From an uncultured Alphaproteobacteria bacterium (GTDB taxonomy: Bacteria > Pseudomonadota > Alphaproteobacteria > Micropepsales > Micropepsaceae), in the NCBI GenBank assembly GCA_963710025.1, contig CAVPYO010000021.1:50517-114516 (forward strand): a stretch of DNA of 64,000 nt. The letters run 5' to 3'. The position numbers and the translations under genes are program-made. Each line of letters starts with the position of its first letter. Position 1 is the first letter of the stretch. The notes beneath the pieces were generated by a model, which saw only the letters and a list, made by a program, of their open reading frames with translations, was not told the origin of the DNA and did not search any database. Positions 8,389-21,652 of this stretch are shown one piece after another.

Positions 8389-11127
8389 TTAGTACTTCAA
8401 CCGAACGCCAGCATAGAATTGGCTGCCATTGCTATACAACGCGCGCGGCTGTGTGGCGTTGTTCGCGTAGTATTTCAATGTCTGGTTGCTCAGATTCAAT
8501 CCATCGAAGGTGATGGAGAGGTAATCGGTAACGGTGAAGGCCACCGATGCATCAAGTCTTCCATAGGCGTTCTGGTATTCCGCGGAACTGCGGTCCAGGC
8601 CAACCAACATGGAAGAAGCATAGCTATACGCTACGCGGGCGCTCAACCAGCTATTCTCGTAATAGCCGGTCAAGTTGGCCGTATTCTTCGCATCTCCAAC
8701 CAGCGGTCCGCCGTTGGTTTCCGCGCCGTTCGCATAGGTATAGTTGGCGATGATGCCGAAGCCCGTGTCCCAAAGCGGCTGCTGCCAGCTGATTTCGATA
8801 CCTTCATCATGCCCGCTGGTGTTGTAAGGAGCGGTAATGGCGTAGGTCGAGTAGACCGGAGTTCCTTGGCCTGTCAGATACATGTTCAAATATGTGCCAT
8901 TGGTCACGCCATAAGTCACATAAGAGGACAGATCCATGTAGAACAAGCCGACGGACAGCATCGCCTGCGGTCCATAGTACAATTCATAGCTGAGATCGTA
9001 GTTCGCCGATCTGATCGGTTTCAGGTTGGGGTTGCCGCCGGTACCGACCAGGATCAGGTCGGTCAGATTCACCGCGCCGCCCAAAGCACTGTAGTCGGCG
9101 CGTGACATGGCTTCTGCAGCTGCAAAGTGCAGCACGCTCTCGTCGTCCAGATGGATGCTGAGATTGGCGCTGGGCAGGATGTCCCAATAGTCGTGCGTGA
9201 TCTTGTTGGTGGAAAAATTACCGAAATCGCTGTACGTGCCACTCGGATCGTTAACGTCCTGCATGATCGTCTCGGCCGTTTTGACGAGCCGAACGCCGAA
9301 GTTGCCCTTCCATCTGTCGCCACCGAGTATCGCCATGGCATAGAGCGCGGTGTCCTGTTCGCGAACGTCCGTGGCGCCTTCCCAATCGTACCGGGAAGCC
9401 CGAGTGACGCCGGCGGCCGATTGCGTATAACTCCTCCAACTCGTGTTGTTATCCAGGAGGGTTACGATGTCGGCCATATTTCCCTGCGGCACGCTTGTTA
9501 ACATGCCAGGGATCTTGAACGCATTCGCGAAATTGGACGGGTAGTCGGAAGTGGAGACCAAACTTCCGCTCGCGAGGGAGCCGCCATACGAAACGCCGCC
9601 GTCATAAAGTAAGGAGGTGTGTCTATGGTCGGAGAAACGCGCACCCGCCTTCACGGACTGGATCGGGCCGATGGCAACCTTCTGCTCGACATCAACTTGA
9701 CCATAGTATTCGTGGTCATCCGCTTTCGATACCGCGCCCCACGCCCAGTCATTGGTCAGGGTGGAAGGATCGGCCGTGTTCACCCCCGGAACGCTGACCG
9801 CAGCAACGCCGGTGCTGAAATCGTAGCTGGCGGCATTGCCTGTCGTCGGTGCAACTTCACCTTCCCAGGCCGCCTGTTGCGGCGTCGTGCCGGTACCACG
9901 GGTATAACCCGCTTTGAAAGCCACCGTCAGATCGTCGCTCGGGTTCCAAGCCGCATCGGCGTTGACGTAATAGGTATCGCTCATGGACGCCGGACGCATG
10001 ATCATGTCTTCAACGATCGGAGCAATCCCGGCTTTTGCTGGCAAGGTTGCGGCAACAAGCGTGTTGTTCGTCACCGTATAGCTGCTGGGTACGTTCGCAG
10101 TAGGACCATTAAACTCCTTCGTACCCCAGAACATGTAGTTGTTGTTGAGGTTGCTGGCGCCCATATGCGAATAGAAGCCGTCCACATTCAGCTTAAAGCT
10201 ATCGCTAGGCTGGAACTCCACGGCGAGATCGCCGCCCTGGCGGATGCGCTGCTGTAAGAACAACGCCGAGCCGATCAAGGTGGGATAATACACACCTACA
10301 AGATCCGGATGGGTGGCAGTAGCGAGGTCACCGCTGGCCGGCGTCACGACGGCATGAGTAATCGGGTCTATAACCGCCGGGACATACTTCTGGAACTGCG
10401 AATAGCCGAGGAATTCCTGACCGTCGCGGCGGATGTTGCGCGCTTCATAAAAAGCCTGCGCCATAACGCCGATCGTGCCTGCATCGTCCTTCCAGGCAAA
10501 CAACGCATTCAATTGCGGAGTGGTGTCCCCGCGCAGCGTCGTATAGGCCGCTTCCGCGCTCCCTTCGAGCGTCAAATTGTCCTTGAAGTCGAGCGGTTTG
10601 CGGGTCTGGATATCGACCTCGCCTGCCACGCCGCCTTCCAGCAAATCGGCTTGCTGGCTCTTGTACACCTTGGCAGAGTCCACGATTTCCGCCGGGAACA
10701 GCGAATAGCTGACGCTGCGGCCGATCGTCTGATACTGATCGAGGATGAACCAATCACCGGTGGAGACCTCGTGTCCGTTGACGATGGTCTGCGTCAAGCT
10801 TGCATTGGTGCCGCGGATGGAAACGCGGTCGTTTTCGTCGAAGCCACCCTCACCGCTCGCTGCCGAAACCGTATTGACACCCGGAACGCGTTGCAACGCG
10901 TCGGCCACGTTTTTGTCCGGAAACTTGCCGATATCTTCCGCCGACACGGCGTCCACGATCGTGGTCGAATCGCGCTTGATATCGAGCGCGCGCTCCGCCG
11001 ATGCACGGATGCCCGTGACGACGACCGTTTCCATCGGCGCGTTTGTATCCTGGCCAACTGCGGGCCCCGTCGCGGCCAAGATGGCAAGCAAGCTGGCGGA
11101 CCCGACTAACACTTCCCTCAATTTCAT
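8389..11127 (-). CDS. TonB-dependent receptor (Caulobacter/Xanthomonas type), probable chito-oligosaccharide importer
   Basis: Signal peptide, TonB box ETVVVTGIRAS, plug motif DAVSAEDIGKFPDKNVADALQRVPGV and an aromatic C-terminal strand. Substrate inferred from context. Confidence 0.9.
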   Translation of the reverse strand: MKLREVLVGSASLLAILAATGPAVGQDTNAPMETVVVTGIRASAERALDIKRDSTTIVDAVSAEDIGKFPDKNVADALQRVPGVNTVSAASGEGGFDENDRVSIRGTNASLTQTIVNGHEVSTGDWFILDQYQTIGRSVSYSLFPAEIVDSAKVYKSQQADLLEGGVAGEVDIQTRKPLDFKDNLTLEGSAEAAYTTLRGDTTPQLNALFAWKDDAGTIGVMAQAFYEARNIRRDGQEFLGYSQFQKYVPAVIDPITHAVVTPASGDLATATHPDLVGVYYPTLIGSALFLQQRIRQGGDLAVEFQPSDSFKLNVDGFYSHMGASNLNNNYMFWGTKEFNGPTANVPSSYTVTNNTLVAATLPAKAGIAPIVEDMIMRPASMSDTYYVNADAAWNPSDDLTVAFKAGYTRGTGTTPQQAAWEGEVAPTTGNAASYDFSTGVAAVSVPGVNTADPSTLTNDWAWGAVSKADDHEYYGQVDVEQKVAIGPIQSVKAGARFSDHRHTSLLYDGGVSYGGSLASGSLVSTSDYPSNFANAFKIPGMLTSVPQGNMADIVTLLDNNTSWRSYTQSAAGVTRASRYDWEGATDVREQDTALYAMAILGGDRWKGNFGVRLVKTAETIMQDVNDPSGTYSDFGNFSTNKITHDYWDILPSANLSIHLDDESVLHFAAAEAMSRADYSALGGAVNLTDLILVGTGGNPNLKPIRSANYDLSYELYYGPQAMLSVGLFYMDLSSYVTYGVTNGTYLNMYLTGQGTPVYSTYAITAPYNTSGHDEGIEISWQQPLWDTGFGIIANYTYANGAETNGGPLVGDAKNTANLTGYYENSWLSARVAYSYASSMLVGLDRSSAEYQNAYGRLDASVAFTVTDYLSITFDGLNLSNQTLKYYANNATQPRALYSNGSQFYAGVRLKY

Positions 11128-11245
11128 TGCTGTCTCCCTCCGTTAGTATCGCCAAAGACGCAGACCTCTGCCTCTTCGCTGCCTCTTTGCTGCCGCCTGC
11201 CGGACCCGCATGATCCGAGGCTGGAAGCATCAATAGAGCCCAATC

Positions 11246-11397
11246 CAATACCATCCATAAATAGGTACTATGTGTCAAGCAGGGACTGTACCAATTCTGC
11301 CACAAATGCCTGAATTTCTGCATTGTTGACGACGTGGGGGGATGATGTGGTATCTAATTGGTAGGATACCTTTTCCCTGTCACGTGGTATGATACCA
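11246..11397. promoter_or_regulatory. Divergent promoter region with TGGTAT-type operator boxes (candidate NagQ sites)
   Basis: CAATACCA 11246-11253, GTACCAAT 11288-11295, TGGTAT 11348, TGGTAGGATACC 11359-11370 and the perfect palindrome TGGTAT-G-ATACCA 11385-11397. Confidence 0.7.
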
Positions 11398-11432
11398 TTG
11401 CGTCGTAACAATAGTCCTGGGGAGGACGTTCC

Positions 11433-12176
11433 GTGCCTACATTCTCAACGATGATAGGGGCCTTGGATGAGGCCAACAGCCTGCCGTTGTATCAACAATT
11501 GCAACGCGGCCTCAGGCAGGCGATCACACAGAAACTGTTGACGCCCAATGACGCCTTACCCCCCGAGCGGGATCTTGCCGAGGAATTCTCGATATCGCGC
11601 ATCACCGTGCGCCGCGCGATCGACGGCCTGGTGAACGAAGGACTGCTGACGCGTCGCCAGGGCTCGGGGACCTTCGTGGCCAGTCGCGTCGAAAAAAGTT
11701 TCTCCAAGCTGACAAGCTTTTCGGAAGACATGGCGACGCGCGGCCGCACACCGCGTTCCGCGTGGCTCAAACGGTCGCAAGGCACGGTGACGCCGGAAGA
11801 GGCAATGACCATGGGGCTCAGCCCCGGAACGCCGGTCTATCGCTTCAACCGTTTGCGATACGCCGACGATGTGCCGATGGCGCTGGAATTCTGCACTATA
11901 CCGACCTTCTGCCTGCCCTCGATCGACGCCGTCACGTCCTCGCTCTACCAGGCCTTGGAGAAATCCGGTCATCGGCCCAAGCGTGCCCTGCAACGGTTGC
12001 GCGCCGTGCTTCTGACGAGCTTGCAGGCGGAACATCTGCAGGGAAATGTCGGCGATGCCGGCCTTTTGGTCGAACGGCGCGGCTTTCTGCTCGACGGCCG
12101 AGTCGTGGAATTTTCTCAGTCCTATTACCGCGGCGATACCTACGACTTCGTCGCGGACCTCAATGCATCGGAGTAG
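11433..12176 (+). CDS. nagQ: GntR/HutC-family regulator with UTRA domain (NagQ-type)
   Basis: wHTH LPPERDLAEEFSISRITVRRA, RRQGSGTFV and a UTRA effector domain. It is the first gene of the nagB-nagA operon. GGAGG RBS, GTG start. Confidence 0.8.
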   Translation: MPTFSTMIGALDEANSLPLYQQLQRGLRQAITQKLLTPNDALPPERDLAEEFSISRITVRRAIDGLVNEGLLTRRQGSGTFVASRVEKSFSKLTSFSEDMATRGRTPRSAWLKRSQGTVTPEEAMTMGLSPGTPVYRFNRLRYADDVPMALEFCTIPTFCLPSIDAVTSSLYQALEKSGHRPKRALQRLRAVLLTSLQAEHLQGNVGDAGLLVERRGFLLDGRVVEFSQSYYRGDTYDFVADLNASE

Positions 12177-12179
12177 ACG

Positions 12180-13244
12180 ATGGTGAGCCCGTTGCAAAAC
12201 TCCGCTCTAGCCGCCCCGCAGGTCGGTCGTACGAAGATGTTCAACGAAGCGCAAGAAGCGCCGGAGGTGGTGGAACGCCAGTTGCGGGCTAACGACGCTG
12301 TCATGACAGACATCGCCTCCCGCCTGCGGGCCCTGGCCCCGCGCGCCGTGGTAACCGTGGCGCGCGGCAGTTCCGATAATGCCGCAACCTTCGCGAAATA
12401 TCTCATCGAGACCAAGCTCGGGATTCTTACCTCTTCCGCTGCTCCGTCCGTCAGCTCCATTTACAGCGTCAGAACCGAACTCAAGGGCACGCTGGTCCTC
12501 GCGATCTCGCAATCCGGCCGCAGCCCCGATCTTATTACCGCGCTCGACATCGCCAAGCGCGCCGGCGCGTTCACCCTTGCACTCGTCAATGTTGCCGAGT
12601 CGCCGCTAGCCGAGTTCGCCGATGTGGTCCTGCCTCTGCATGCCGGGCCGGAGCGCAGTGTCGCTGCCACCAAATCCTACCTCGCGACCAACGCCGCGAT
12701 CGCGCATTTGGTCGCGGCCTGGAGCGGCGACCATGCGTTGCACGAAGCGCTGAAACTGCTACCCGCACAGTTGAGGGAGGCATGGTCGCTTGACTGGAGC
12801 GCGGCCACGACGAGGCTTCAATCCGCGCGCGATCTTTACGTCATTGCCCGCGGCTTAGGCTTCGGCGCGGCGCAAGAAGCGGCGCTGAAATTAAAAGAAA
12901 CCTGCGCCTTGCATGCGGAAGCATTCAGTGCCGCCGAAGTCCGCCACGGCCCGATGGCGATCGCAAACAAAGGCTTTCCGGCCCTGGTGCTGTCACAAAA
13001 CGACGAAACAAGGCTTGGAATCAAGGAGACCGTGACTGCGTTCTTGGCGCATGGCGTCGACGTGCTACTGGCGGGATTCGAAGATCCCCACGCCTTGAAT
13101 CTTCCATCCTTGGCGGCCCATCCCGCGTTGCAGCCGATCCTTTTCCTGCAAAGTTTCTATCGGATGGCCGAAGCGCTGTCGCGGGCGCGCGGTCTGAATC
13201 CAGACAATCCTCCCTACCTCAACAAAGTGACCGAGACGCTGTGA
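12180..13244 (+). CDS. nagB: Glucosamine-6-phosphate deaminase, SIS-domain type (NagB-II)
   Basis: Two SIS domains (ARGSSDNAA, ISQSGRSPD, ERSVAATKSY, EAALKLKE, AEVRHGP) and C-terminal NPDNPPYLNKVTETL. No glutaminase domain. Confidence 0.85.
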   Translation: MVSPLQNSALAAPQVGRTKMFNEAQEAPEVVERQLRANDAVMTDIASRLRALAPRAVVTVARGSSDNAATFAKYLIETKLGILTSSAAPSVSSIYSVRTELKGTLVLAISQSGRSPDLITALDIAKRAGAFTLALVNVAESPLAEFADVVLPLHAGPERSVAATKSYLATNAAIAHLVAAWSGDHALHEALKLLPAQLREAWSLDWSAATTRLQSARDLYVIARGLGFGAAQEAALKLKETCALHAEAFSAAEVRHGPMAIANKGFPALVLSQNDETRLGIKETVTAFLAHGVDVLLAGFEDPHALNLPSLAAHPALQPILFLQSFYRMAEALSRARGLNPDNPPYLNKVTETL

Positions 13245-14392
13245 TGACAACTGCACTTGCCAATGGCCGTATCGTGACCGGTAGAGCCTTGGCGAAAGGC
13301 CTCACCATATTAATCGAAGACGGACGAATCGGCGCCATCGTCCCGGCACACGCTGTGCCGCAAGGATGCGAAGTCTACGACCTGGAAGGCGGCACGCTGA
13401 TGGCCGGCTTCATCGATCTTCAGGTCAACGGAGGAGGAGGCGTGCTGTTCAACGACGCCCCGACAGTCCAGGCGCTGCACACGATCGGCCGCGCCCATAG
13501 CCGTTTCGGCACCACGGGATTTTTGCCGACCATCATGAGCGACGACTTCGCCACCATCGCCGAGGCTATTGCGGCCGTGGACGAGGCTATCGCCGCGGGC
13601 GTGCCTGGCGTGTTGGGCATCCATATTGAAGGCCCGTTCCTCAACGCGGAGCGGAAGGGCATCCACGACCCCGCTAATTTTCGGATTCTGGACGCCGACG
13701 GCTTTTCGCTCGTCACCTCACTCAAGCGCGGCAAGACGATGCTGACACTGGCGCCGGAGACCACGAGCCCGCGCATGATCGCGGCCCTGACCGAAGCAGG
13801 CGTGCTGGTTTCCGCCGGCCATACCAATGCGAATTACGAGATATTGACGGCCGCTTTCGCTGCCGGGCTTCGGGGCTTCACGCATCTGTTCAACGCCATG
13901 TCGACGCTGACGGCCAGGGCGCCGGGTACGGTGGGAAGCGCGCTCGACAATGACGACTGCTGGTGCGGAGTTATCGTGGACGGCCGCCACGTGCATCCGG
14001 CCTCGCTGCGCGTCGCGCTGCGCTGCAAGGGCCGCGACCGGCTGATGCTCGTTACCGATGCGATGCCGAGCGTCGGATCCTCTCGTAAGTCCTTCGAACT
14101 GGCCGGCAAGACGATCAGCGTCCAGAACGGTGTCTGCGTTGGCCCCGACGGCACATTGGCGGGATCGGATCTCGACATGGCGGCGGCGTTCCGCAACGCA
14201 AAATCGTTTTTCAAGCTCGACCTGCCCGACCTCTCGCGCCTAGCCAGCGGCAATGCAGCGGAGTTTCTTGGCCTCGAACGGGAGATCGGTTTCATCCTGC
14301 CAGGCGCCCGCGCCGATCTTGTCCTGATGAACGACGAACTGCAGGTGCGGCAATGTTGGATCGGCGGCAAACCGCAGCTCGTACGGGAGTGA
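13241..14392 (+). CDS. nagA: N-acetylglucosamine-6-phosphate deacetylase
   Basis: GFIDLQVNGGGG, GIHIEGPF, SAGHTNA, THLFNAM, VTDAM, LAGSDL. Confidence 0.95.
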   Translation: MMTTALANGRIVTGRALAKGLTILIEDGRIGAIVPAHAVPQGCEVYDLEGGTLMAGFIDLQVNGGGGVLFNDAPTVQALHTIGRAHSRFGTTGFLPTIMSDDFATIAEAIAAVDEAIAAGVPGVLGIHIEGPFLNAERKGIHDPANFRILDADGFSLVTSLKRGKTMLTLAPETTSPRMIAALTEAGVLVSAGHTNANYEILTAAFAAGLRGFTHLFNAMSTLTARAPGTVGSALDNDDCWCGVIVDGRHVHPASLRVALRCKGRDRLMLVTDAMPSVGSSRKSFELAGKTISVQNGVCVGPDGTLAGSDLDMAAAFRNAKSFFKLDLPDLSRLASGNAAEFLGLEREIGFILPGARADLVLMNDELQVRQCWIGGKPQLVRE

Positions 14393-14462
14393 GCCGTCCT
14401 GCTCCGGCGCAGGCCTGGTGGAACATCGCCAAGCCAGCGTCGGCGGGGATGCGGAGAGTGTC

Positions 14463-15722
14463 ATGAAATGGATTGCCGGTCTTCTTCTGCTCTGTTGCGG
14501 CACAAGCCTCTCCGCCTGGGCGGCGCCTTCGGCCGCAGACGTTAGCGTTGCCAAGCCATGCAGCCAGCCTGTCTCCGACAAAGGCCGCGAAACAATCCAG
14601 CAGCGCAGGGTTTTCGTCGGGTACTACCCCAGTTGGCTCGACCCCGTTCTTGCGCCAAGCGCGAACGGCTGCGACACGACACAGGAAGGGGCGCCTGCCA
14701 GCGGTCTTGCATTTGCGCCGGCAGCCTATAGCCATATCGTCATCGCCTTCGCCGATCCCAATTTTTCCTGGGACGGCGACATGACGTCCTGGGCGGGCAG
14801 CGGCCTGCAGTTCCGCGCATCGCCGGTACAGGTCGAACGCGCCATCGACGCGCTCCATGCCCGCAAGCTGCGCGTTCTGTTGGCCGTAGGCGGAGCAATC
14901 TACAAAAATTGGACGGCCCTCGCCGCCGAAGGCCGCAGCCGGACCGCCGGACCGATGACCAAGGCCCTGGCGCACATGGTGGGCGCCCTGGGGCTTGACG
15001 GCTTGGATATCGATTACGAAGTCGAAGGGGCGGACGGTGCCGCGATTGCGGACTATCGCGACGCGATCCGCGCGCTCGACACCGCCGTCCGCCTCGCCGG
15101 CCGCGGCAAGCTTCTGACACTCGCCGCCTGGTCCATAGGCGCCGACTGCACCACGGCGACCGAACTTTCGCCTTGCCGAGGCGAAACATCCTCCTGGCCG
15201 GGAGGCTTCGCCGGACGGGAACGTCTGACCTTTGCGGACCCCAATATCGTCCGTATGCTGAGCATGGTCAGCGTCATGTCCTATGACGCGGGATACGAAA
15301 ATTACGACGCCGTCAGGGCATGGACGCTATACCGCGCGCTGCTGCCCAAGAGGATCGTCGTCAACATCGGATTCGAAATCGCGCCCGAGGGATGGGGCGG
15401 CGGCAGGCTGGTCGCCGAAGACGCGCAGGCTGAGTGCCCCGGCTCGGTCATTGTGGCCGATCAATTCGGCGAGCCGGTGAACCAACCTTATTCCGTGGAT
15501 CGCCTGATCAAGGCCGCGCCTTTGAGCCGGCGGCCGCACGGCAATCCGCAAGACGGGGTCATGCTCTGGAACATTCTCAAGAACGAGAATCTGCCGGATT
15601 GTGGATCCTTGCCCGTCGTTTCACCAAAGGGATTGGAAGCCAAGGCCGCTGCCGTTCTGGATGCCGGGCCCGATGGTGTCGCTTCTCCATCCGCCCATCC
15701 CGAGGCCGCCCATGTCCAGTGA
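14463..15722 (+). CDS. Secreted GH18 chitinase-like protein
   Basis: Signal peptide MKWIAGLLLLCCGTSLSAWA, AVGG motif, intact catalytic DxxDxDxE (LDGLDIDYE) and VMSYD. Start at ATG 14463 after a GGAG RBS. Confidence 0.85.
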   Translation: MKWIAGLLLLCCGTSLSAWAAPSAADVSVAKPCSQPVSDKGRETIQQRRVFVGYYPSWLDPVLAPSANGCDTTQEGAPASGLAFAPAAYSHIVIAFADPNFSWDGDMTSWAGSGLQFRASPVQVERAIDALHARKLRVLLAVGGAIYKNWTALAAEGRSRTAGPMTKALAHMVGALGLDGLDIDYEVEGADGAAIADYRDAIRALDTAVRLAGRGKLLTLAAWSIGADCTTATELSPCRGETSSWPGGFAGRERLTFADPNIVRMLSMVSVMSYDAGYENYDAVRAWTLYRALLPKRIVVNIGFEIAPEGWGGGRLVAEDAQAECPGSVIVADQFGEPVNQPYSVDRLIKAAPLSRRPHGNPQDGVMLWNILKNENLPDCGSLPVVSPKGLEAKAAAVLDAGPDGVASPSAHPEAAHVQ

Positions 15723-17034
15723 GAGTTCCATCGTCTCGACGCCGATCGAAACCGTTGCCGCTAGACGTCGCCATTTTCATCCCGCCACTTGGGTACCCAC
15801 GCTCTACACCGCCGAGGGCCTGCCATTCGTGATGGTGAATGTGGTTTCGGTGTTCATGTACAAAAGCCTCGGTCTCAACGACAGCAAGATCGCCTTCTTC
15901 ACTAGCCTCGTGACCATCCCCTGGGCGATAAAGCCGCTATGGGGGGCATTGATCGAGATGTTCCGCACCAAGAAGGCGTTCGTCCTGGCCACGGAACTAG
16001 GCGGCGGCGTCTGCTTCGGACTGGTGGCGCTCAGTCTGCACCTGCCCTCCTGGTTCGCGTGGACTCTTATCTTCTTTGGCCTTTGCGCCATCAACTCATC
16101 CGTCCACGACACGGCCGCCGACGGGATCTATGTCACCGTCCTCAACGCTAAACAGCAGGCAAAATGGGTCGGCTGGCAAGGCGCGTTTTACAATGTCGGC
16201 AAGATCGTCAGCCAAGGCGGATTCGTCCTGGTCGCCGGGCTTTTAGAAAAACGCTACGGGCCGGTCTCTGCCTGGACGATAGTGTTCTGCGCTTTCGGAT
16301 TGCTGATGATCACGATCGGCCTCTGGCATCTGCTGTTTCTGCCATCCGGCGGGCGCGCCAAACCCGTCTCCACGGCTCAGGCCGCCCGCACTTTTCTCGA
16401 TGTGCTCGTGACCTTCTTCCGCAAAAAATACATCCTGTGGGGTATCGTGTTTCTCGTGCTCTACCGTTTTGCCGAGGGCCTAGCGATCAAGATCGCGCCG
16501 CTGTTTTTGCGCGCCGCGCGTGACCATGGCGGCCTCGGTCTGTCGACAGCGGATGCCGGGTGGCTCTATGGCGTCTTTCCGCCTATCGCCTTCGTCCTGG
16601 GCTCGATCGCGGCGGGCTATTTCACGGCAGGCAGAGGATTGCGCAAATCGCTTCTAGTGCTGTGCGCAGCCTTCAACATTCCCTTTGCGGTATATCTTTT
16701 CCTTGCTCTGGTGCAGCCCGCCGACCGCTCGCTCATTACAGTCCTGGTGAGCCTCGAGTGGCTTGGATACGGATTCGGATTTGTCGGTCTGATGCTTTTC
16801 ATGATGCAGCAGATCGCGCCAGGCCCCTACCGCACGGCCCATTACGCCTTCGCGACCTCCCTGATGGGGTTCGGGTTCCTGATCCCCTCGTCGATGAGCG
16901 GCTTTTTAAGTGACGCGCTGGGTTACCAGAAATTCTTCCTCCTGGTGATGCTGGCGACCATTCCTTCCTTCCTCATCTCCTGGCTGGTGCCCTTCCGCGA
17001 TACCTCGGCGGAAGCGCAGCCGGGAGTGGTTTGA
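15712..17034 (+). CDS. AmpG-like MFS permease
   Basis: AmpG-family motifs (YTAEGLPF, PWAIKPLWGALIE, HDTAADG, YRFAEG, YRTAHYAFATS) and about 12 hydrophobic segments. Overlaps the GH18 stop. Confidence 0.85.
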   Translation: MSSESSIVSTPIETVAARRRHFHPATWVPTLYTAEGLPFVMVNVVSVFMYKSLGLNDSKIAFFTSLVTIPWAIKPLWGALIEMFRTKKAFVLATELGGGVCFGLVALSLHLPSWFAWTLIFFGLCAINSSVHDTAADGIYVTVLNAKQQAKWVGWQGAFYNVGKIVSQGGFVLVAGLLEKRYGPVSAWTIVFCAFGLLMITIGLWHLLFLPSGGRAKPVSTAQAARTFLDVLVTFFRKKYILWGIVFLVLYRFAEGLAIKIAPLFLRAARDHGGLGLSTADAGWLYGVFPPIAFVLGSIAAGYFTAGRGLRKSLLVLCAAFNIPFAVYLFLALVQPADRSLITVLVSLEWLGYGFGFVGLMLFMMQQIAPGPYRTAHYAFATSLMGFGFLIPSSMSGFLSDALGYQKFFLLVMLATIPSFLISWLVPFRDTSAEAQPGVV

Positions 17035-17048
17035 CCGGAGCGCACGAC

Positions 17049-19304
17049 ATGAACACGCCCTTGAAAGTTCTCGTTCTCGCCGCGGGACAGAAGTCGATGC
17101 CATCCGGCGGCGGCGCGCTTGAGCTGCAACCGCTCGGCGACAGCACCGTGCTCGGACACGTGGTGCGCAACTTGCGCGGGCTTGCGGCGCCGCGCGATCT
17201 CATCGTCATCGCGGCGCCGGGCTCGCTCAAGGCGATCCAGAAAGAGCTGGGCTGGGAGCCAGCCTATGTCATCCAGGAAGAACCGCTGGGCACCGGCCAT
17301 GCCGTTTTGCAGGCGGCGGGGATCTTGAGCGGATACGACGGGGACCTACTCATCCTTTATGCCGACACGCCGCTGCTGCGCCCGGCTACGCTGCGCGGCC
17401 TTCTAAACCGTCACCGGCTGAAAGCCGCCGACCTCACCCTCCTCACCGCCAACGTCCCGCAAGACCTGCCCTACGGGCGCGTACGGCGCGACGCCTCTGG
17501 CAAGATTCTCGACATCATCGAGCAATCCGAGGCGACAACGGAGGTCAAGGCGCTGCGCGAATTGAACGTCGGCGCCTATGTGGTGCGCGCGACGACGATC
17601 CTCGAGGCCCTGAGCGGCCTTAAGCCCCCCGAAGATGCCGCCGAATTGCGCCTGACGGATTGCGTGCAGCAGCTTTTGCGCTCGGGCCTGAAAGTGGACA
17701 GCTACCAGCTCTACGATCCGGACGAGGTTCGCGGCATCAACGACATCGCGGATCTGGAACAGGCCGCTTTCATTCTCCAGAAGCGGCTTTTCCGCCCTCG
17801 CCGCCAGGAAGAGGAAAACGAGGTGTCGTTCGGCACCGGCGGCTGGCGCGCCATCATCGGCGAAGGGTTCACTCTGCATAATGTGCGGCGGCTCTGCCAA
17901 GCCCTCGCCAACGAGAGCACGCGCAGCGGAGTGGAGAAAAAGGGCGTCATCGTCGGTTACGACCGCCGCTTCCTTAGCCGCCAGGCCGCCGAGGCCGCGA
18001 GCGAGGTATTCGCCGGCAACAATATCCCGACGATCTTATGCAGCGAGGATGCTCCGACTCCGCTCATCAACTATGCCACAGCGATGCTGGGCAGCGCCTA
18101 CGGTTTGGCCTTCACCGCCAGCCACAACCCACCGGAATGGAATGGATTGAAAGTGTTTCACGGCGACGGCTCGTTGCTGCTCGATCACGAGACCAAGACC
18201 GTCGCCGCCGAAACGAATGCCCTGACCACATCCGACGTCATCAAGCTGGAGCTGGATCTGGCTCTGGAGGCCGGCATCGTCAAGGTCAGGGACTTCACCA
18301 ACGAATATGTCGATGCGGTGGAAGCCTTGATCGACATGGACGTGATCCGCAAGGCGGGACTGAAGCTGATCGTGGATCCGATGTACGGCGTGGGGCAATT
18401 GACTCTCGAGACGGTCCTCGTCGAAGCGCGCTGCCGGGTTCACTTCATCCACAACCGCCATAATCCGCTTTTCGGCGGACGCAGCCCGGCGCCCGATCTG
18501 GAGGCGATGCGCGATCTCATCAACGAATTGCAGCAGAAAAGTTACGATCTGGGGCTGGCGATGGACGGCGACGCGGACCGTATCGCCATCGTCGACGAGA
18601 AAGGCCGCTACATCTCGTTTAACGACGTGCTCGTGCTGCTTTACTGGTATCTGCACGAAGTACGCGGCGAACGGGGCAGCGTGGTGCGCAATCTCAGCAC
18701 CACGCATATTCTGGACCGTTTGGCCAAGGCGCTCGGCGAGGACTGCATCGAAGTGCCGGTGGGCTTCAAGCACATCGCCGCCGCGATGGTCGAGCACAAC
18801 GCCCTGCTGGGCGGAGAGAGCAGCGGCGGCCTCACCATCCGCGGCCATATCCTCGGCAAGGACGGCATCTTCGCCTCGGCAATCGTGGTGGAGATGGTGG
18901 CGCGCACCGGTCTCAAGATCAGCGAATTGCAGGAGAAAGTGTGGTCCCTGACCGGTCGGCTTTACAGCGCAGAGGAACATTTCCCCGCTACGCCGGAAAT
19001 GAAGATCGCCATTCCGAAGCTGCTGAAGGAAGCGCCTTGCAACGATGTCGCCGGCTATCCGGTGGAACGCATCAGCCACGTGGACGGCACCAAGCTCTAC
19101 CTGGCCAACGACAACTGGGCGCAGCTGCGCTTCAGCGGCACCGAGCCTGTGCTGCGCCTAGCGGTGGAAGCGGACAGCCCCGAGAAGGCGCGGGACCTGA
19201 TCGCTTGGCTGAAGCAATTCGTCTCCGCAAAAGCAGAAAAATCGACAACCGCCGAGGATCCATGCGTTACGGCCATTTCGACAATGAAAACCGCGAATAT
19301 GTGA
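17049..19304 (+). CDS. Fusion: GlmU-like nucleotidyltransferase domain plus phosphohexomutase (probable GlcNAc-1-P/6-P mutase)
   Basis: The N-terminal ~250 aa carry GlmU-like motifs (LAAG, QEEPLGTGHAV, LYADTPL, YGRV, ELNVG, LTD, GIND). The C-terminal part has intact mutase motifs TASHNP, DGDADR, GGESSGG and RFSGTEP. Confidence 0.85.
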   Translation: MNTPLKVLVLAAGQKSMPSGGGALELQPLGDSTVLGHVVRNLRGLAAPRDLIVIAAPGSLKAIQKELGWEPAYVIQEEPLGTGHAVLQAAGILSGYDGDLLILYADTPLLRPATLRGLLNRHRLKAADLTLLTANVPQDLPYGRVRRDASGKILDIIEQSEATTEVKALRELNVGAYVVRATTILEALSGLKPPEDAAELRLTDCVQQLLRSGLKVDSYQLYDPDEVRGINDIADLEQAAFILQKRLFRPRRQEEENEVSFGTGGWRAIIGEGFTLHNVRRLCQALANESTRSGVEKKGVIVGYDRRFLSRQAAEAASEVFAGNNIPTILCSEDAPTPLINYATAMLGSAYGLAFTASHNPPEWNGLKVFHGDGSLLLDHETKTVAAETNALTTSDVIKLELDLALEAGIVKVRDFTNEYVDAVEALIDMDVIRKAGLKLIVDPMYGVGQLTLETVLVEARCRVHFIHNRHNPLFGGRSPAPDLEAMRDLINELQQKSYDLGLAMDGDADRIAIVDEKGRYISFNDVLVLLYWYLHEVRGERGSVVRNLSTTHILDRLAKALGEDCIEVPVGFKHIAAAMVEHNALLGGESSGGLTIRGHILGKDGIFASAIVVEMVARTGLKISELQEKVWSLTGRLYSAEEHFPATPEMKIAIPKLLKEAPCNDVAGYPVERISHVDGTKLYLANDNWAQLRFSGTEPVLRLAVEADSPEKARDLIAWLKQFVSAKAEKSTTAEDPCVTAISTMKTANM

Positions 19305-21652
19305 TCGACCGGATCGACGTCCCGGTCTCCTGGACCAATTACATCGGCGTGAACCGGATGTGCGCGGTGCTCAGCCATGTGGCGGGCGGCTACAGCTTCT
19401 ACCGCGATGCCGAGCACGGCCGCATCACCCGATTCCGCCCCAATGGCGTGCCCATGGATTGGCCGGGGCACTGGATATACCTGCGCGACGACGAGGACAG
19501 GGACTATTGGACGATCACCTGGCAGCCGGTGGGAAAGCCCTTGGACCAGGCAAAATACGAATGCCGCCACGGCTTGTCCTATTCCCGCTACGAAGCCGAA
19601 TACAAAGGTATCCGCGCGGAACAGCTGATCTTCATCACCCACGAGGACGACGTGGAGATCTGGGATGTGCGGGTGAAAAACCTTTCGAGTCGCCCGCGCA
19701 CGCTCAGCCTCTTCAGCTATCTCGAATGGAGTTTCCACCACATCGAGATCGACAACCAGAATTTCCAGATGTCTCTTTATGCCAGCGGCTCCAGTTACGC
19801 CCAGGGCGTGATCGAATACGACTTCCATTACGAACCCTGGACCTACCATTTCCACGCCGCGAGTTTCGAGCCCGACGGCTTCGACAGCATGCGCGACAGC
19901 TGGATCGGGCCTTACCGCAGCGAACGCAATCCGCTGGCGGTGAGCGACGGCCGCTGCGGCGACAGCGCGGAGACGACCGGCAACCACTGCGCCAGCCTCC
20001 ACAAGCGGATCACGCTTGCTCCCGGCGAAGAGCGGCGATTTGTCTTCATGGTCGGCACCGGCGACCGCGCGGTGGGTATCGAGAAAAAGGCCAAGTATAG
20101 CGACTTCAAGAAGGTCGACGCCGCCTTCGCCGACCTCAAAGACTATTGGGACGAGAAATGCGCCGTCTTCCAGGCGACGACGCCCAATCCCGGGCTCGAC
20201 ACCATGGTCAACATCTGGACGCTCTACCAGGCGGAGACCTGCGTGGTTTGGAGCCGGTTCGCCAGCTTCATCGAGGTCGGCGGTCGCACCGGACTTGGCT
20301 ATCGCGACACCAGTCAGGACGTGATGGCGGTTCCTCACACCAACCCGGCGAAGGTCAAGCAACGCCTCACGGAGCTGCTCAACGGCCAGGTCAGCATGGG
20401 CTACGGCCTGCACCTATTCGATCCGGAATGGTTCCTCCCGCAGCAAAAGCCAAAATTCAAGAGTCCCACGATCGCGCATGCACCGGCCAAATCGAGCTAC
20501 ATCCACGGACCCGACCAAGCCTGCTCGGACGACCATCTCTGGCTCATCCCCTCGATCTGCGACTATGTGAAGGAAACCGGCGATACCGCCTTCTTCGACG
20601 AGGTGATTCCTTATTGCGACAAAGGCGAAGCCACGGTTTGGGACCATATGAAGGCGGCCCTCAATTTCAGCGCCAAAAAAGTCGGCCCCTCGGGTATCTG
20701 CCTCGGTCTGCGCGCCGACTGGAACGATTGTCTCAATCTTGGCGGCGGCGAGAGCGCCATGGTGAGCTTCTTGCACCATTGGGCCCTGCTCGCCTTCGTG
20801 GAGGCGGCCCAGTTCCTGGGCCGTCAGGAGGACGGCGAAACCTATCGCGCCCTGGCGGCCAAGGTGCGCGCCGCCTGCGAGCGCGAATTGTGGGACGGCA
20901 AATGGTATGCCCGCGGCACCACCGCGTCCGGCCTCAAGATCGGCACCGAGGCCAGCGAAGAGGCCAAGGTCTTCATCGAAAGCAACAGCTGGGCGGTCCT
21001 CTCCGACGCCGCGCCGCGCAAGCACGCCGAAGCCGCGGTCGCGGCGATGGACGAACATCTTTTCTCGCCTTGGGGACTGCACCTTCTGCAGCCGAGTTTC
21101 TCACGGCCCAACGACGAGATCGGTTTCATGGGCCGCGTCTACAAAGGCGTGAAGGAAAACGGTGCCATCTTCAGCCATCCCAATCCCTGGGCGGTGATCG
21201 CCGCGGCGAAACTCGGCCAGGGCGGCCGCGCGATGCGCTTCTACGACAGTCTTTTGCCCTATAATCAGAACGACAAGATCGAAACCCGGCAGGCGGAACC
21301 CTACAGCTATTGCCAGTTCGTCTACGGCGCCGAGCACAAGCGGCATGGCCGGGCGCGGCATCCCTGGCTGACCGGCAGCGCCGGTTGGAGTTACACCGCC
21401 GTCACCAAATGGATTCTCGGCGTGCGTCCCGGCTTTAAGGGCTTAACGGTCGATCCCTGCATCCCGCCCAATTGGCCAAGCTTCACGGTTGTACGCAAAT
21501 GGCGCGGCGCCACCTATCGCATCGAGATCCGCAATCCGGACGGCGTCAGCAAGGGCGTGCGCTCCATACTTCTCGACGGAAAACCCATTGCGGGCGAAAT
21601 ACCGGTTCAACCCACCGGTAGCGTGGCCGACGTTACCGTCGTCATGGGTTAG
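19262..21652 (+). CDS. chbP: N,N'-diacetylchitobiose phosphorylase (GH94)
   Basis: Starts MRYGHFDNENREYVI like Vibrio ChbP, with GAGGA RBS. Carries RTGLGYRD, CSDDHLWL, RADWNDCLNLGG, KENGAIFSHPNPW and HPWLTGSAGW. Confidence 0.88.
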   Translation: MRYGHFDNENREYVIDRIDVPVSWTNYIGVNRMCAVLSHVAGGYSFYRDAEHGRITRFRPNGVPMDWPGHWIYLRDDEDRDYWTITWQPVGKPLDQAKYECRHGLSYSRYEAEYKGIRAEQLIFITHEDDVEIWDVRVKNLSSRPRTLSLFSYLEWSFHHIEIDNQNFQMSLYASGSSYAQGVIEYDFHYEPWTYHFHAASFEPDGFDSMRDSWIGPYRSERNPLAVSDGRCGDSAETTGNHCASLHKRITLAPGEERRFVFMVGTGDRAVGIEKKAKYSDFKKVDAAFADLKDYWDEKCAVFQATTPNPGLDTMVNIWTLYQAETCVVWSRFASFIEVGGRTGLGYRDTSQDVMAVPHTNPAKVKQRLTELLNGQVSMGYGLHLFDPEWFLPQQKPKFKSPTIAHAPAKSSYIHGPDQACSDDHLWLIPSICDYVKETGDTAFFDEVIPYCDKGEATVWDHMKAALNFSAKKVGPSGICLGLRADWNDCLNLGGGESAMVSFLHHWALLAFVEAAQFLGRQEDGETYRALAAKVRAACERELWDGKWYARGTTASGLKIGTEASEEAKVFIESNSWAVLSDAAPRKHAEAAVAAMDEHLFSPWGLHLLQPSFSRPNDEIGFMGRVYKGVKENGAIFSHPNPWAVIAAAKLGQGGRAMRFYDSLLPYNQNDKIETRQAEPYSYCQFVYGAEHKRHGRARHPWLTGSAGWSYTAVTKWILGVRPGFKGLTVDPCIPPNWPSFTVVRKWRGATYRIEIRNPDGVSKGVRSILLDGKPIAGEIPVQPTGSVADVTVVMG

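Follow-up and report, generated by a model that had tools for sequence, protein, structure and literature searches.

A phosphohexomutase joined to a putative UDP-GlcNAc-sensing pseudo-uridylyltransferase domain in a bacterial chitobiose cluster

A 64,000-nucleotide stretch of contig CAVPYO010000021.1 (assembly GCA_963710025.1, from an uncultured alphaproteobacterium of the Micropepsaceae), referred to here as the window, encodes a 751-residue protein in which a domain resembling the uridylyltransferase GlmU is joined to a phosphohexomutase, beside a gene for N,N'-diacetylchitobiose phosphorylase (ChbP). With moderate confidence, this fusion is read as a mutase of N-acetylglucosamine (GlcNAc) phosphates whose N-terminal domain, a pseudo-uridylyltransferase, would bind uridine diphosphate-GlcNAc (UDP-GlcNAc) and gate the mutase, a reading that rests on patterns of sequence conservation. 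Throughout the family, the arginine and lysine needed for catalysis by GlmU have been lost from the signature loop, while the residues lining the uridine and GlcNAc pocket have been kept. No published description of the fusion turned up in literature searches that covered it and related terms, and its current database names are generic or wrong ('NTP transferase domain-containing protein', 'phosphomannomutase/MobA'). Its parts are as follows, in coordinates of the window.

17049..19304, forward strand: whole fusion gene, 751 amino acids, comprising pseudo-GlmU domain, linker and phosphohexomutase
17061..17792, forward strand: GlmU-like nucleotidyltransferase domain, residues 5-248 (NCBIfam, phmmer, alignment)
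17076..17141, forward strand: degenerate signature loop LAAGQKSMPSGGGALELQPLGD, residues 10-31, with Met17 and Leu24 in place of the catalytic Arg and Lys
17379..17381, forward strand: Arg111, invariant and specific to the clade, five residues past the Mg2+ ligand D106
17649..17651, forward strand: Arg201, clade-specific, equivalent to Tyr197 of E. coli GlmU, between the pocket residues E195 and T199
17781..17819, forward strand: interdomain linker KRLFRPRRQEEEN, residues 245-257
17823..19223, forward strand: alpha-D-phosphohexomutase of four domains, residues 259-725 (Pfam, NCBIfam, structure match)

Loss of the Catalytic Loop and Retention of the Pocket

The standard signature loop reads L-x2-G-x-G-T-x-M-x4-P-K, and its Arg and Lys, Arg18 and Lys25 of GlmU, are catalytic residues that hold the beta and gamma phosphates of uridine triphosphate (UTP), that is, pyrophosphate (PPi). 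A phmmer search of the PDB aligned residues 8-247 of the fusion to S. pneumoniae GlmU (1g95) with an E-value of 7e-32 and about 29% identity, and the alignment is free of gaps over the signature loop, where the Arg is replaced by Met17 and the Lys by Leu24. An earlier note on this DNA, made from the letters alone, had described the loop as broken and the uridine and GlcNAc pocket motifs as retained; the alignment bears out the former, and every motif it named occurs in the fusion and has its counterpart in E. coli GlmU. The pocket of the fusion keeps Q76, G81, T82, Y104, D106, Y142, G143, E158, N173, T203, and N231, which correspond to Q76, G81, T82, Y103, D105, Y139, G140, E154, N169, T199, and N227 of the E. 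coli enzyme.

The same note had found the acetyltransferase domain missing, and this also holds. Pfam places an NTP_transf_3/NTP_transferase domain at residues 8-215, and the NCBIfam GlmU models match the fusion (E-values 1e-43 to 6e-45) over model positions ~3-241 of ~450 only, from which it follows that the left-handed beta-helix (LbH) acetyltransferase half is absent; neither Pfam nor NCBIfam gave a hexapeptide-repeat match in the fusion. With the GlmU model TIGR01173, whose cut-off is 367 bits, the fusion scores 149, and none of the curated NCBIfam models reaches its cut-off on this protein. The fusion is not a member of GlmU, failing on signature loop, LbH domain, and cut-off alike. Compared with the N-terminal domain of GlmU from E. 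coli, S. pneumoniae, and M. tuberculosis, its first domain has the same fold and identical uridine, GlcNAc, and Mg2+ ligands, but it is devoid of Arg18, Lys25, Lys156, and the LbH acetyltransferase and trimerisation domain, and it carries in addition R111, R121, R201, and the mutase.

A search of 5.8 billion proteins yielded 120 clusters of 68-100% identity, all with the same architecture, including Rhizomicrobium electricum and Terriglobales genomes. Not one of the 120 has an Arg at the position of E. coli R18 or a Lys at that of K25, and several have dispensed with 8-11 residues of the loop, as in LAAGNSILLQPLGE. A scan of one genome per species detected at least 449 relatives, the best 80 of which were analysed; these belong to Alphaproteobacteria, Acidobacteriota, Chloroflexota, and Verrucomicrobiota, and all 80 are fused. 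No canonical GxGxR loop was found in the 60 of these 80 loci read by pattern, nor was Arg or Lys found at the two loop positions in 60 aligned genome loci. Because the canonical loop is absent from all of these clusters and genome loci, its breakage is regarded as a fixed, ancient feature of the clade and not as decay. The possibility entertained in the earlier note, that homologues are intact and this copy is merely decaying, is thereby ruled out by a loss fixed family-wide in a domain that remains 66% conserved.

The pocket behaves in the opposite manner to the loop. In E. coli numbering, Q76, G81, T82, D105, Y139, G140, E154, N169, and T199 do not vary in any of the 120 clusters, N227 is present in 119 and Y103 in 118, and all of the listed pocket residues are invariant in the 60 genome loci compared. 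Mean pairwise identity amounts to 66% for the N-terminal domain, 81% for the mutase, 83% for the linker KRLFRPRRQEEEN, and 53% for the loop, which is the least conserved part of a domain with 67 near-invariant positions. The clade has lost R18, K25, and K156 and gained invariant R111, R121, and R201, all three of which are absent from GlmU and from a second, intact-loop clade of fusions described below; at the position of Arg111, these carry Ser or Thr. Judged by these substitutions, the site has been remodelled and not merely damaged, a correction to the picture of a simply broken site given earlier. With Arg and Lys gone and the loop variable or deleted, the domain is predicted to be incapable of the GlmU reaction. 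The residues contacting uracil (Q, G, A), the roles of which have been described for M. tuberculosis GlmU (PMC9105790), are conserved, so it can be argued that a nucleotide is still bound.

The Mutase Half and the Integrity of the Fusion

The second half is an intact member of the alpha-D-phosphohexomutase superfamily, as the earlier note had stated. Pfam recognises PGM_PMM domains I-IV over residues 260-717 with E-values of 8e-31, 3e-23, 4e-25, and 1e-07, respectively, and the four catalytic loops, all conserved in the family, are TASHNP (356-361, with phosphoserine S358), the metal-binding DGDADR (506-511), the sugar-binding GGESSGG (588-594), and the phosphate-binding RFSGTEP (694-700, with SGTEP at 696-700). 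Foldseek matched this half to structures from T. kodakarensis (9du5), P. horikoshii (1wqa), and T. thermophilus (1tuo) with TM scores of 0.85-0.88. The same four domains and four loops are thus found in the archaeal and Thermus mutases of the PGM/PMM/GlmM type, from which the fusion differs by an N-terminal extension of 258 residues, made up of the pseudo-nucleotidyltransferase domain and the linker; none of the structure matches was a solved chain covering both halves. Mutases that stand alone and share 57% identity with the mutase half are also found, and the GlmM model gives this half 157 bits against a cut-off of 447.

The open reading frame spans 17031-19304 on the forward strand as a single continuous frame. 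Its true start is the ATG at 17049, with GGAG 8 nucleotides upstream and the stop codon of the preceding major facilitator superfamily (MFS) gene 15 nucleotides before it, and homologues share the same N-terminal beginning, MNTPLK. A fusion produced by assembly is ruled out, as the frame is continuous in 80 of 80 species loci. Naturally split versions with a separate regulatory subunit were likewise considered and rejected: the genes coding for the N-terminal domain only (L097 5001-7107; L098 5001-7200) come from error-prone metagenome assemblies and lie on contigs where many genes are fragmented; the mutase follows directly in a different frame, and they represent assembly frameshifts.

An AlphaFold2 model of the fusion has a mean predicted local distance difference test score (pLDDT) of 85.9 and a predicted template modelling score (pTM) of 0.75; the signature loop and the linker are its least confident structured parts, and the final 22 residues are disordered. 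The pTM value and the conserved linker together suggest that the model's two domains adopt a defined arrangement. The C-terminal tail (residues ~726-751), where the downstream gene overlaps, is not conserved in homologues and has a pLDDT of about 30.

The Chitobiose Cluster in the Window

The fusion is gene six of an eight-gene cluster on one strand, which has the order GntR/UTRA regulator, NagB-II, NagA, glycoside hydrolase family 18 (GH18) protein, AmpG-like MFS permease, fusion, GH94 phosphorylase, and ROK kinase. The neighbouring genes are listed below.

8389-11127, reverse strand: TonB-dependent receptor, 912 amino acids, divergent from the GntR regulator gene
11433-12176, forward strand: GntR/UTRA regulator
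12180-13244, forward strand: NagB-II (353 bits)
13241-14392, forward strand: NagA (TIGR00221, 314 bits, above cut-off)
14418-15722, forward strand: GH18 protein (weak Pfam GH18 match, E-value 2.5e-11; faint match to an EndoS-like TIM barrel)
15712..17034, forward strand: AmpG-like MFS permease, candidate chitobiose importer, directly upstream of the fusion
19262..21652, forward strand: chbP, GH94 N,N'-diacetylchitobiose phosphorylase orthologue, 796 amino acids
21659..22573, forward strand: ROK-family sugar kinase, NagK-like

The identification of the GH94 neighbour as a chitobiose phosphorylase, proposed earlier, is upheld by a score of 1171 bits to V. proteolyticus ChbP (1v7v), compared with about 487 bits to cellobiose phosphorylases. 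The true start of chbP is the ATG at 19262, in another frame, and the gene overlaps the last 43 nucleotides of the fusion gene (19262-19304), which suggests translational coupling. All steps of a route are encoded in the cluster: after uptake, chitobiose is cleaved by phosphorolysis to GlcNAc and GlcNAc-1-phosphate (GlcNAc-1-P), both of which are turned into GlcNAc-6-phosphate (GlcNAc-6-P), by kinase and mutase, respectively, and deacetylation by NagA and deamination by NagB-II lead from there to fructose-6-phosphate. The substrate of the mutase in this operon is very probably the GlcNAc-1-P made by ChbP, because no other gene of the cluster consumes it and half of the chitobiose carbon would otherwise be stranded. 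In its place beside ChbP, the fusion matches the role of the standalone GlcNAc-1-P mutase of chitobiose operons; as a pathway step only, such a mutase reaction appears in a genome paper on chitinolytic Acidobacteria (PMC6252331).

As for transport, the cluster contains no ABC or phosphotransferase-system (PTS) chitobiose transporter, and the conserved triad of MFS permease, fusion, and GH94 fits a role of the permease as chitobiose importer. The TonB-dependent receptor is a likely outer-membrane entry for chito-oligosaccharides, and the 305-nucleotide intergenic region at 11128-11432 should hold operator sites. The GH18 protein, whose substrate may be chitin oligomers or N-glycan cores, accompanies the fusion only in the six loci from Alphaproteobacteria.

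Elsewhere in the host genome there are a full-length glmU of canonical type, with the loop LAAGQGTRMKSAMPK and a score of 471 bits, and a likewise canonical glmM, which scores 620 bits. A full GlmU is also present in 20 of 24 other fusion-bearing genomes tested, the remaining four being metagenome bins. The idea that the fusion serves as the sole GlmU or GlmM of the cell is ruled out by these canonical genes.

Genomic Context across the Family

Of the 80 loci, 69 were informative, having enough flanking sequence or a match, and a glycoside phosphorylase gene (GH94 or GH130) adjoins the fusion in 53 of these 69 and is lacking in 16. In 38 of the 80 loci a GH94 gene shares the strand of the fusion, and in 30 of these it is no more than 300 nucleotides downstream. 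The partner is GH130 in 15 further loci, all from Chloroflexota, with the N-glycan-core mannoside phosphorylase UhgbMP as closest match (545 bits, 4udg); in the Chloroflexota cluster the genes follow each other on one strand as GH130, a ~360-residue protein without a Pfam match, an enolase-superfamily (MR_MLE) protein, and the fusion last. Phosphorolysis of N-glycans or mannosides is thus a second process to which this pseudo-GlmU mutase is connected.

L026 6576-12217; L035 8915-12223; L065, L083, L097 and ten more: Chloroflexota GH130 loci, including Anaerolineae

The AmpG-like permease is found upstream in 31 of the 80 loci (Alphaproteobacteria and Acidobacteriota, e.g., L013 8652-9983), and the triad of MFS permease, fusion, and GH94 is conserved across these two groups. 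Of the 18 genomes tested in which no GH94 adjoins the fusion, just one encodes a ChbP orthologue at another place, and strict coupling to chitobiose phosphorylase is ruled out by this figure and by the GH94 count. The link to chitobiose phosphorylase drawn in the earlier note is therefore real in the window but not specific. Pocket and mutase residues are identical at loci with and without GH94.

Fusions with an Intact Loop and Other Relatives

An exhaustive, profile-free search of 1.84 billion representatives retrieved more distant fusions, among them an intact-loop group of ~25 clusters from Oscillospiraceae, Ruminococcaceae, and Clostridiales that are ~41% identical overall. These Clostridia proteins (e.g., P0128) have ~718 residues, with a mutase half ~45% and an N-terminal half 31-37% identical to the fusion of the window, and share its two-module architecture and length. 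Unlike the broken-loop clade, they have an intact loop (LAAGKGxR[LM]...PKV is kept in 24 of 25 clusters) and no R111, R121, or R201, and they neighbour a ROK kinase with no phosphorylase (GH94) nearby. They fit a true bifunctional salvage enzyme, probably one that takes GlcNAc-6-P by way of GlcNAc-1-P to UDP-GlcNAc. At one such locus (L015 8793-14705), P0128 follows a 390-residue ROK protein, and an APH-family kinase and a small NTP_transferase protein are encoded on the opposite strand, a pair that recalls AmgK and MurU, the anomeric kinase and the uridylyltransferase of cell-wall sugar salvage.

In a maximum-likelihood tree of the N-terminal domain, in which branches are long and bootstraps unsettled, the Clostridia fusions fall together with GlmU-like sequences and are split from the broken-loop clade by a branch with 95/84 support. 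Two standalone mutases, taken from a Clostridia-dominated search, were compared with the Clostridia mutase halves and share 71-74% identity with them. From these sequences, the broken-loop and intact-loop fusions may be independent in origin; a single origin of both types is not supported by the tree and the mutase identities. Two distant representatives, P0122 and P0129, are degenerate to differing degrees. In a further protein, P0153 (829 residues), a ManC/RmlA-like nucleotidyltransferase with an LbH domain is fused to a related mutase; its signature loop LAGERGAPLYPLTARQPRAML looks degenerate, the Arg of GxGxRL being replaced and PK reading PR, and loss of catalytic loop residues in fusions of nucleotidyltransferase and mutase may be recurrent.

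Proposed Function and Its Alternatives

Under the reading favoured here, the mutase would turn the GlcNAc-1-P released by ChbP into GlcNAc-6-P for NagA and NagB-II and, being reversible, would also set the balance between catabolism and the branch on which the separate GlmU converts GlcNAc-1-P to UDP-GlcNAc. The N-terminal domain would be a pseudo-enzyme derived from the uridylyltransferase domain of GlmU, with no hold on the beta and gamma phosphates of UTP or on PPi. Its contacts to uracil, ribose, Mg2+, and GlcNAc are preserved, arginines have been added close to the pocket, and the most probable ligand is UDP-GlcNAc-Mg2+ or a close nucleotide sugar. Occupancy of this pocket would be passed to the mutase via the conserved and presumably rigid linker, and the UDP-GlcNAc signal would keep phosphorolysis from flooding or starving the pool of cell-wall precursors. 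In this role UDP-GlcNAc could act as either an activator or an inhibitor. The earlier note had offered such a sensor as one of two hypotheses, and the part concerning lost catalytic residues and a kept pocket stands as observed, while sensing and gating are the best-supported deduction from conservation.

Precedents for this kind of control are available. GMPPA, a non-catalytic paralogue, binds GDP-mannose and regulates GMPPB (PMC11228364). The likeness lies in a nucleotidyltransferase fold in which catalysis has been lost, the end-product nucleotide sugar is bound, and a pathway enzyme is regulated; GMPPA differs in being eukaryotic and a separate polypeptide and in regulating the pyrophosphorylase itself, while the dead domain described here is fused to a mutase that it would putatively regulate.

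A second precedent is the large subunit of potato ADP-glucose pyrophosphorylase (AGPase), which is reported to have lost the homologous Arg and Lys and become modulatory, back-mutation restoring activity (Ballicora et al. 2005, JBC 280:10189). This subunit differs in forming a heterotetramer with its catalytic paralogue, in sensing 3-phosphoglycerate and phosphate elsewhere, and in having no mutase fusion. The fusion shares with such pseudo-nucleotidyltransferase sensors the lost catalytic residues and a pocket under purifying selection, while binding of a nucleotide sugar and allosteric control of the partner enzyme, which also mark these sensors, are predicted for it.

Several points weigh against this reading. 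Conservation is the basis for both the proposed ligand and the proposed allostery, and an invariant pocket with three new arginines would fit a changed catalysis equally well. The specificity of the mutase cannot be read from its sequence, the best NCBIfam model, Arch_GlmM, giving 288 bits against a cut-off of 439, and the linker through which the signal would pass has a pLDDT of only 60-73 in the AlphaFold2 model. Some loci place the fusion next to a mannoside phosphorylase, and of the 18 genomes tested that lack an adjacent GH94, 17 have no ChbP orthologue, so that the mutase may in some cases act on a substrate other than GlcNAc-1-P, and it is not evident how a UDP-GlcNAc signal would relate to such settings.

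An unlikely alternative is that the N-terminal domain is still an enzyme, rewired so that R111 and R201 replace R18 and K25 in a PPi-independent reaction, for example, the hydrolysis or phosphorolysis of UDP-GlcNAc to GlcNAc-1-P for the mutase, as an overflow valve, or uridylyl transfer from another donor. Every Mg2+ and substrate ligand, including D105 and N227, is invariant, three basic residues have been lost as three arginines were gained and fixed, the joining of consecutive pathway steps is a common cause of gene fusion, and the Clostridia intact-loop clade has the same architecture and is a probable bifunctional enzyme. Against this, no member of the superfamily is known to function once these two loop residues are missing, the loop itself, which shuts over the phosphates, varies and has been partly deleted in some members, the Mg2+ ligands are needed also merely to bind a UDP-sugar-Mg complex, and the supposed spatial placement of the new arginines is drawn from their position in the sequence. 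An active bifunctional enzyme that channels chitin-derived GlcNAc phosphate to UDP-GlcNAc, the other hypothesis of the earlier note, is scarcely probable here. It would explain an architecture of two consecutive steps, mutase then uridylyltransferase, and the Clostridia intact-loop proteins beside a ROK kinase probably do just this; however, Arg and Lys are absent throughout the present clade and the loop is deleted in some members, canonical GlmU coexists, the rest of the operon is catabolic (NagA, NagB-II), and ChbP already yields GlcNAc-1-P, which makes a mutase superfluous on that route.

The domain could also bind a sugar phosphate (GlcNAc-1-P, GlcNAc-6-P, or GlcNAc-1,6-bisphosphate, the intermediate and activator of the mutase) and act as a module for substrate capture or cofactor retention, which is quite doubtful. 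The invariant residues on the GlcNAc and phosphate sides, the new R201 between the sugar-pocket residues E195 and T199, and the strong genomic linkage to enzymes that release sugar 1-phosphates would all suit such a module, yet the uracil and ribose contacts A13, G14, Q76, G81, and T82 are as invariant as the sugar contacts and would be unnecessary if no nucleotide were bound, which weakens this explanation; to our knowledge, it also has no precedent among phosphohexomutases. It is highly unlikely that the domain has no ligand-dependent role and persists as a structural or oligomerisation scaffold or as a relic that stabilises the mutase. The standalone relatives of the mutase half presumably work alone, which would agree with a dispensable partner, but every ligand contact is invariant across four phyla while the loop drifts, and the apparently split genes are no natural separations.

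Implications

GlcNAc-1-P is the last branch point between the burning of amino sugars and the synthesis of peptidoglycan and other envelope polymers, and the fusion, predicted to act at this point, occurs in several hundred species or more from phyla that are abundant in soil and sediment, its carriers being Acidobacteriota, Chloroflexota, Verrucomicrobiota, and Micropepsales-like Alphaproteobacteria. What would be new is regulation by a pseudo-nucleotidyltransferase, of a kind already known, in a form fused to a mutase and present in bacteria. There is a small chance that the N-terminal domain has instead been re-tooled, for instance for the cleavage of UDP-GlcNAc to GlcNAc-1-P, or that it holds a captive GlcNAc-1,6-bisphosphate by which the mutase is activated. 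In both cases the GlmU fold would have taken on a new role, in catalysis or in cofactor handling, in several hundred species.

If the UDP-GlcNAc-sensing role is true, the database names of these proteins would need correcting, and the fusion would be a bacterial, covalently joined counterpart of the pseudo-enzyme control known from GMPPA. It would then also offer a simple, testable model of how a catalytic domain turns regulatory, with a natural control in the Clostridia clade, in which the same architecture has kept its catalytic loop.

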